In this document: positions 17,014-17,220 of the stretch, piece by piece
Position numbering within the stretch: position 1 is the first letter of the stretch
Layout of the letters: every line of letters starts with the position of its first letter
From: Escherichia coli
Lineage (GTDB): Bacteria; Pseudomonadota; Gammaproteobacteria; Enterobacterales; Enterobacteriaceae
Assembly (NCBI RefSeq): GCF_003334305.1
Contig: NZ_QOWS01000004.1
Length of the DNA: 64,000 nt
Direction: 5' to 3' (one strand)
Position numbers and translations under genes: made by a program
The notes under the pieces: model-generated
The model's database searches: none
The model's input: the letters and a program-made list of their open reading frames with translations, nothing else
What the model was told of the DNA's origin: nothing

Positions 17014-17220
17014 GTGGGCTACTGTGCCTAAAATGTCGGATGCGACGCTGGCGCGTCTTATCCAACCTACGGGGAGCGCATGTGTTGGTCACATACTGCG
17101 TTCATGTCGCATCCACCTACTGTGCCCAAAATGTCGGATGCGACGCTGGCGCGTCTTATCCGACCTACGGGGACGCATGTGTAGGCCGGATAAGGCGTTT
17201 ACGCCGCATCCGGCAATGGT
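17014..17220. repeat. BIME/REP cluster containing a ~98-bp direct duplication
   Basis: Two near-identical copies of ctactgtgcc(t/c)aaaatgtcggatgcgacgctggcgcgtcttatcc(a/g)acctacgggga at ~17019 and ~17117, plus a third REP aggccggataaggcgtttacgccgcatccggca. Confidence 0.85.

Follow-up and report, generated by a model that had tools for sequence, protein, structure and literature searches.

Among the REP-containing systems described in Escherichia coli, BIME-2 comes closest to the array analyzed here: it combines z2 and y REPs, has a short S linker, occurs as tandem copies, and varies in copy number from strain to strain (PMC3333891, PMC1187871). On its tail side, a BIME-2 unit is flanked by an s, l, or r motif. 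The tandem copies at a given BIME-2 locus are described as well conserved. In BIME-1, a single-copy element, the REP is Z1 and the long L linker contains an IHF site (PMC3333891). BIME-2 arrays also occur at the RAYT gene (REPtron, yafM), where the same Y/Z2 blocks are substrates of TnpA-REP in vitro (PMC3333891, PMC2817692); a REP that is functional for TnpA-REP needs GTAG, placed 5′ to an imperfect palindrome whose stem contains a mismatch (PMC3333891). A further tandem system, the REP325 cluster with naRNA4 (RF02564), comprises six repeats of two palindromic units each (PMC4550694).

We examined a REP array in a 64-kb stretch of E. coli DNA (hereafter the window), where it lies in the 225-bp gap between two convergent genes. 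The gap is bounded on the left by norW (NADH:flavorubredoxin reductase; CDS at 15880–17013 on the + strand in both the ORF list and RefSeq), with its TAG stop at 17011–17013, and on the right by hypF (carbamoyltransferase HypF; 17239–19491 on the − strand, likewise from the ORF list and RefSeq), for which the TAA stop was checked at 17239–17241; the hypF start was taken from the 2,253-nt RefSeq gene, the mechanical ORF reaching 19539. Gene names are those that RefSeq gives in K-12 and in E. coli records whose sequence is identical or nearly so. We consider, with a probability of about 0.9, that the sequence between these genes is a BIME-2-type REP array of two tandem units, the inner Y of which has decayed. 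The RefSeq records that we inspected have no annotated feature between norW and hypF, the K-12 RefSeq record has no REP feature in this gap, and a literature search retrieved no paper on the norW–hypF array in particular.

The units measure 98 and 97 bp, and each consists of a tail linker, a Z2-like REP, a head linker of 12–13 nt, and an inverted Y REP, all given here in + strand coordinates. Unit 1 opens with a tail-side linker at 17019–17034 (CTACTGTGCCTAAAAT), continues with Z2-like REP copy 1 at 17035–17070 (CTAC end on the + strand, GTAG form on the − strand) and a 13-nt head-to-head linker at 17071–17083 (GGGGAGCGCATGT; one base longer than its unit 2 counterpart in the gapped alignment), and closes with a decayed Y-type REP at 17084–17116, in which GTTG replaces GTAG. 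In unit 2, the tail-side linker recurs at 17117–17132 (CTACTGTGCCCAAAAT), forming direct repeat D1 with its unit 1 counterpart, and is followed by Z2-like REP copy 2 at 17133–17168, a 12-nt head-to-head linker at 17169–17180 (GGGGACGCATGT), and a canonical Y-type REP at 17181–17215 that bears GTAG on the + strand and is inverted with respect to both Z2 copies (inverted repeats I2 and I7). The 16-nt tail linker sequence is CTACTGTGCCYAAAAT. REP heads face each other within each unit, CTAC at 17067–17070 standing 13 nt from GTTG at 17084, and CTAC at 17165–17168 standing 12 nt from GTAG at 17181; inverted repeats I2 and I3 accord with this layout. The right edge is formed by a trailing motif at 17216–17229 (ATGGTGTCCAAATG), the tail of repeat family D2, which seems to resemble the tail-side linkers, the similarity being weak; the decayed Y falls within the same family at 71%. 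The first REP stem begins 21 nt past the norW stop, and the Y stem finishes 23 nt short of that of hypF.

To assign the REPs to types, we aligned them with the E. coli Y, Z1, and Z2 sequences published in the Methods of PMC11208160. The element at 17181–17215 is identical to published Y (35/35), and the two Z2-like elements match published Z2 ungapped at 32 of 37 positions (17035–17071) and 33 of 37 (17133–17169). Against the other references, they reached 26–27 of 34 with gaps (Y) or required seven gap columns (Z1). The four differences between copy 2 and Z2 amount to two compensatory outer-stem pair changes (C-G to T-A and T-A to G-C), so that the variant stem reads GTCGGAT...ATCCGAC here and GCCTGAT...ATCAGGC in the published sequence. 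The inner Y is degenerate, matching published Y at 23 of 35 positions. Three elements are predicted to fold on both strands at −15 to −21 kcal/mol: the RNA hairpin of Z2 copy 1 reaches −14.8 kcal/mol on the + strand, where an A at 17065 weakens it, and −19.2 on the − strand; copy 2, an intact hairpin, reaches −20.8 and −21.3 kcal/mol (z about −5); and the Y REP at 17181–17215 reaches −20.9 and −21.3 kcal/mol. For the inner Y at 17084–17116, no stable hairpin was predicted (folding z-scores +0.37 and −0.41). A GTAG 5′ of an imperfect, mismatched palindrome is found in three of the four elements and is missing from 17084–17116. The original prediction had described a BIME cluster with a REP in each of two blocks and a third in opposite orientation, all within 17014–17220; the Z2-like REPs, the inverted Y, and their alternating orientation bear this out, and that interval brackets the whole array.

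Two near-identical blocks of ~65 nt, 98 bp apart, had also been proposed, and the alignment reproduces them: 17019–17075 and 17117–17173 agree at 55 of 57 positions (96%) with a start-to-start distance of 98, and a single 1-nt indel in the head linker stretches the match to 67 columns at 95.5% (17019–17085 vs. 17117–17182, gapped alignment). In 200 dinucleotide-preserving shuffles of 16800–17400, the best 57-nt direct match was 32/57; the repeat is thus far above the level expected by chance. Placed in register with the third REP, the spacer at 17084–17116 matches it at 22 of 33 positions, and none of 100,000 shuffles did as well; the spacer is therefore homologous to the Y REP, which means that the duplication spans a whole two-REP unit and not just the ~65-nt block. 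Judged by its sequence, then, the duplicated object is a complete two-REP unit, and the original prediction overlooked a decayed fourth REP at 17084–17116. Tandem Repeats Finder, at its thresholds, left the window array unreported because the inner Y is too divergent, but it does report the four-unit allele of strain JNU (see below).

With BIME-2, the array shares Y and Z2 REPs in alternating orientation, a short S linker between GTAG and CTAC ends, an extragenic site between convergent genes, and tandem units whose number varies among strains. It differs from BIME-2 in that its Z2 copies carry the two compensatory stem-pair changes and its inner Y is non-palindromic and lacks GTAG; whereas tandem BIME-2 copies are said to be well conserved at each locus, conservation in this array is limited to one half of the unit. 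With its variant Z2 copies and degenerate inner Y, the array might be called an "atypical BIME" by a strict classifier. Assignment to BIME-1 was considered and rejected, as the central stem is of Z2 type, the linkers are 12–13 nt long, and the unit is tandemly repeated. Unlike the REPtron arrays, this one has norW and hypF as neighbors, with no adjoining transposase gene. It resembles the REP325 cluster, the source of the processed, HU-binding naRNA4, in its tandem two-REP units, but its locus and linkers differ. We regard the array as an ordinary instance of a known element with a known polymorphism, BIME-2 copy-number variation having already been documented (PMC3333891, PMC1187871).

We then surveyed unit number at this locus in 5,426 complete E. 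coli genomes, using match spans of 553, 651, ~500 (three-unit query), and 601 bp (four-unit query) as signatures of one, two, three, and four units, respectively; the counts derive from BLAST summaries rather than per-genome parsing and are approximate. One unit, the state of K-12 and O157:H7, is the most frequent, at ~2,675 genomes or 49% (4,635 genomes at ≥80% coverage minus 1,960). Two units occur in ~1,890 genomes (35%) as two sequence types: the window type in ~830 (≥90% identity in the middle segment, 17071–17133) and a diverged B2-type, seen in ST131 and other strains, in 1,058 (80–90% identity). Three units were found in at least 17 genomes (H161–H177, single-piece matches to the three-unit query) and four units in 54 (H101–H154), including JNU, for which Tandem Repeats Finder gives a period of 97 and four copies. 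Five units are hinted at by "highest 4 places" in the middle-segment search, but no such allele appeared among the top matches listed for the three- and four-unit queries. The remaining class, without a Z2 REP, numbers 791 genomes (15%) and includes at least two types, one with the Y REP only (L004) and one in which the spacer is of another kind, free of REPs, and hypF is shorter by 12 nt (L003).

The REP-free spacer occurs in ~14% of E. coli (L003 515–603, strain DG343-1) and contains a perfect 9-bp hairpin, CCCTCGCCC AAA GGGCGAGGG; the shortened hypF of these alleles has a different 3′ end. The same allele is present on a 7.7-kb contig of a metagenome-assembled genome labeled Citrobacter sp. 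HRGM_Genome_0066 (L017), which suggests mis-binning or recent transfer. Since its flanks are 95–97% identical to those of E. coli, we rejected it as an outgroup.

The comparison of copy number among E. coli genomes that had been called for with the original prediction thus yields alleles of one to four units, and unit number differs even between haplotypes with identical flanks. BS15R-A, with one unit, and JNU, with four, have identical flanks over 280 + 280 nt, so that unit number has changed on a single haplotype; JNU and the window are separated by 10 differences in the norW flank. In K-12 MG1655, precisely one 98-bp unit is missing, which leaves an intergenic region of 127 bp, and the flanks of K-12 differ from those of the window at 2 and 0 positions over 280 + 280 nt. 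At the same time, 825 records match the window over 651 bp at ≥99% identity, and the four-unit allele is 100% identical over the full 601 bp in 40 isolates from different hosts, with 2 more over 600 bp. By these comparisons, the locus behaves as a lineage-level polymorphism with rare change, not as a fast-switching contingency locus. The proposed copy-number hotspot therefore stands as far as variation is concerned; on the time scale of lineages, change is rare, and the window carries an old, widely shared allele instead of a recent duplication.

Several observations bear on where and when the two units arose. REPs number in the hundreds, a 651-bp query matched a median of 28 places per genome, and the window itself holds other REPs, so two dispersed REPs might have inserted independently and come to lie 98 bp apart by coincidence. 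We find this hardly credible: the similarity between the blocks runs beyond the REP into the linkers, 16 nt upstream and ~15 nt downstream, and the next 33 nt are homologous in register. Moreover, in a low-stringency search the 63-nt middle segment (17071–17133) was found in 1,960 of the 5,426 genomes, with a median of one site per genome, and every locus that we inspected lay between norW and hypF; within the 64-kb window the linkers of the array had no match at the other REPs (24487–24568 and 52645–52681). The unit is thus specific to the norW–hypF locus, which argues that the two blocks arose by local duplication. A local duplication could in principle have been recent, having occurred within the strain lineage from a K-12-like single unit, as no more than 2 of 57 positions distinguish the Z2 blocks and K-12 differs by exactly one unit between near-identical flanks. 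This reading is already largely refuted and strikes us as very improbable, since the inner Y, which has lost its hairpin, shows 11 differences in 33 positions from the outer one, and since so many records carry the window allele at ≥99% identity. The decayed inner Y is, in addition, common to the window-type, the B2/ST131-like (1,058 genomes), and the three- and four-unit alleles, and to Escherichia sp. E1V33, which represents a separate species in GTDB, has ~97% identical flanks, and carries three units with both inner Ys decayed. In ST131-like strains, the inner Y shows 7 of 34 differences from that of the window and 12–15 from canonical Y, and the extra base of the unit 1 head linker is likewise common to the window and the ST131-like (B2-type) alleles. 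Shared decay and the shared linker base indicate that the duplication and the loss of the Y palindrome predate the split of these lineages, and later expansions copied a unit that was already decayed.

An old tandem duplication of the whole unit would thus have produced the two-unit state, after which the number changed repeatedly, between one and four, most likely through unequal homologous recombination or replication slippage between the direct repeats of 57–67 nt. Such repeats are, from general knowledge, sufficient for either process, and this weighs against a role for TnpA-REP/RAYT (yafM), which might instead change unit number by cutting and rejoining at REPs or iREPs and their linkers. 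In vitro, this enzyme binds REPs that bear GTAG, cuts iREPs and linkers at C|T, and carries out strand exchange, and the authors of that study proposed its activity as the cause of BIME-2 copy-number variation (PMC3333891); the Z2 copies here retain GTAG and an imperfect hairpin on the − strand and could therefore recruit it. Yet the inner unit that is amplified has a Y with neither GTAG nor hairpin, and the type I site TGCC|TGAT is altered to TGTC|GGAT in these Z2 variants. On balance, we consider involvement of TnpA-REP unlikely and favor recombination or slippage; the junctions of one-unit alleles fall inside long identical stretches and so look the same under either mechanism. A different kind of alternative, that the array encodes a discrete naRNA4-like small RNA or a small protein, seems to us very unlikely, although ~80% of E. 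coli REPs are reported to be transcribed (PMC4550694) and mechanical ORFs overlap the array. These ORFs overlap the hairpins and hypF antisense and vary with unit number, RefSeq annotates nothing in the gap, and no promoter-like site was found there. An Rfam search run at permissive E-values did match RF02564 (naRNA4) at 17184–17243 (52 bits), 17087–17165 (40.7), and 17003–17067 (32.9), but the best of these lies below the gathering score of 59.5, and naRNA4 derives from the REP325 cluster, so that sub-threshold scores reflect common REP sequence.

Occupancy of the gap by REPs appears to be older still than the duplication. L015, with flanks 93% identical, has a single unit, the Y-like REP of which is largely intact but has the head GTCG rather than GTAG. 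In Citrobacter youngae ATCC 29220 (L016 1–295), a Y-like REP, GTAGGCCGGATAAGGCGCAGCCGCCATCCGGCA, lies in the same orientation beside the hypF end, with an incomplete inverted copy ahead of it. Together, the REPs of L015 and C. youngae indicate that occupancy predates the duplication and is not restricted to Escherichia.

For the reduction in unit number, K-12 provides the clearest case. Its single unit is a hybrid that matches unit 1 in its 5′ variant (CCTAAAATG) and unit 2 in its 3′ variants (ATCCGACC), together with the 12-nt linker and an intact Y, and would be the expected product of a deletion by crossover between the Z2 blocks. Single-unit alleles such as that of K-12 are thus probably secondary deletions. 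The direction of deletion and expansion was inferred from a handful of alleles and from the usual phylogroup relations, in which A and B1 are sisters and B2 lies outside. The single unit of 0H25 keeps the 13-nt linker of unit 1, consistent with a different crossover point. The one-unit alleles of HYM1 (L010) and 0H25 (L011) share the substitutions CCGATCTAC and AAGGCATTTACG and have altered GTAG heads, GTTGG in HYM1 and GTAAG in 0H25; this allele family may represent independent contractions or early decay of the Y REP. As to concerted evolution of the Z2 copies, the paralogues of the window allele (5 differences) are closer to each other than B1–B2 orthologues are (8–9), whereas those of B2 alleles (12–16) are more distant. 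A two-unit superperiod, which would point to block doubling, was sought in the four-unit allele: for JNU, Tandem Repeats Finder gives a period of 195 at 94% vs. a period of 97 at 90%, and the tail linkers alternate between GTGCC and GTACC; the distances between Z2 blocks show no two-unit superperiod.

The two halves of the unit have diverged unevenly. Across all alleles, the outer Y shows 0–1 differences, while the inner Ys have all lost their palindromic form and are nonetheless co-amplified. One might suppose that the halves evolve under different selection, only the hairpins that face the convergent transcripts, or the Z2 copies with GTAG on the − strand, being maintained, and that alleles of one to four units are functionally distinct; we hold this to be doubtful, with the odds well against it. 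If it were true, unit number might tune 3′-end processing of norVW and hydN-hypF or local supercoiling, and the alleles would not be neutral. The Z2 inner stem of JNU (L005 552–760 for units 2 and 3) reads GACGC...GCGTC in units 1 and 4; unit 2 has GATGC...GCGTC, which contains a G-T wobble, and in unit 3 the pair is restored as GATGC...GCATC (a compensatory change from C-G to T-A). This stepwise change suggests either selection for the hairpin or templated correction.

REP hairpins can block 3′ exonucleases, stabilize upstream mRNA, and attenuate read-through. At this locus, transcription would place the predicted hairpins at the 3′ ends of the norVW and hydN-hypF mRNAs. The original prediction had taken the array to mark the norVW terminator and boundary; its position between the norW and hypF stops fits the boundary, but an intrinsic terminator was not recovered, a consensus scan of the norW–hypF gap finding neither an intrinsic terminator nor a promoter-like site. 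REPs are reported to aid Rho-dependent termination (PMC2817692 and references listed in PMC12306157), and BIME-2 arrays are bound and cleaved by DNA gyrase according to literature cited in PMC2817692 and listed in PMC12306157. By analogy, a gyrase site between convergent genes is a plausible asset.

What the analysis adds to the known element is modest, namely recognition of a fourth, decayed REP, the range of alleles found (REP-free, Y only, and one to four units), and evidence for an old two-unit state from which single-unit alleles such as that of K-12 probably arose by deletion; no new kind of element or mechanism is involved. As a well-populated example of BIME-2 unit-number polymorphism, the array could serve as a typing marker and could help to test how REP arrays expand, contract, and decay. 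Its alleles also form a natural series for asking whether the number of REP hairpins affects the stability of the 3′ ends of convergent operons.

The RF02564 model, in matching the REPs of this array at 33–52 bits, appears to detect generic REP sequence in part. Elsewhere in the window, a Y-type REP at 24487–24522 (GTGCCGGATGCGGCGTGAACGCCTTATCCGGCCTAC) is followed after 16 nt by a shorter, inverted REP at 24539–24568 (GTAGGCCCGATAAGCGCAGCGCATCGGGCA); together, they make a single BIME at 24487–24568 whose partner REP is of a different type from that in the norW–hypF array. A solitary Z2-like REP (TTCCGGATGCGACGCTATCGCGTCTTATCCAGACTAC) is found at 52645–52681, just past a stop codon, and ~30 nt beyond it lies a GC-rich hairpin with a T-run, GGCCAGCCTCGCTTGAGACTGGCC TTTCT (52714–52741), that resembles an intrinsic terminator.
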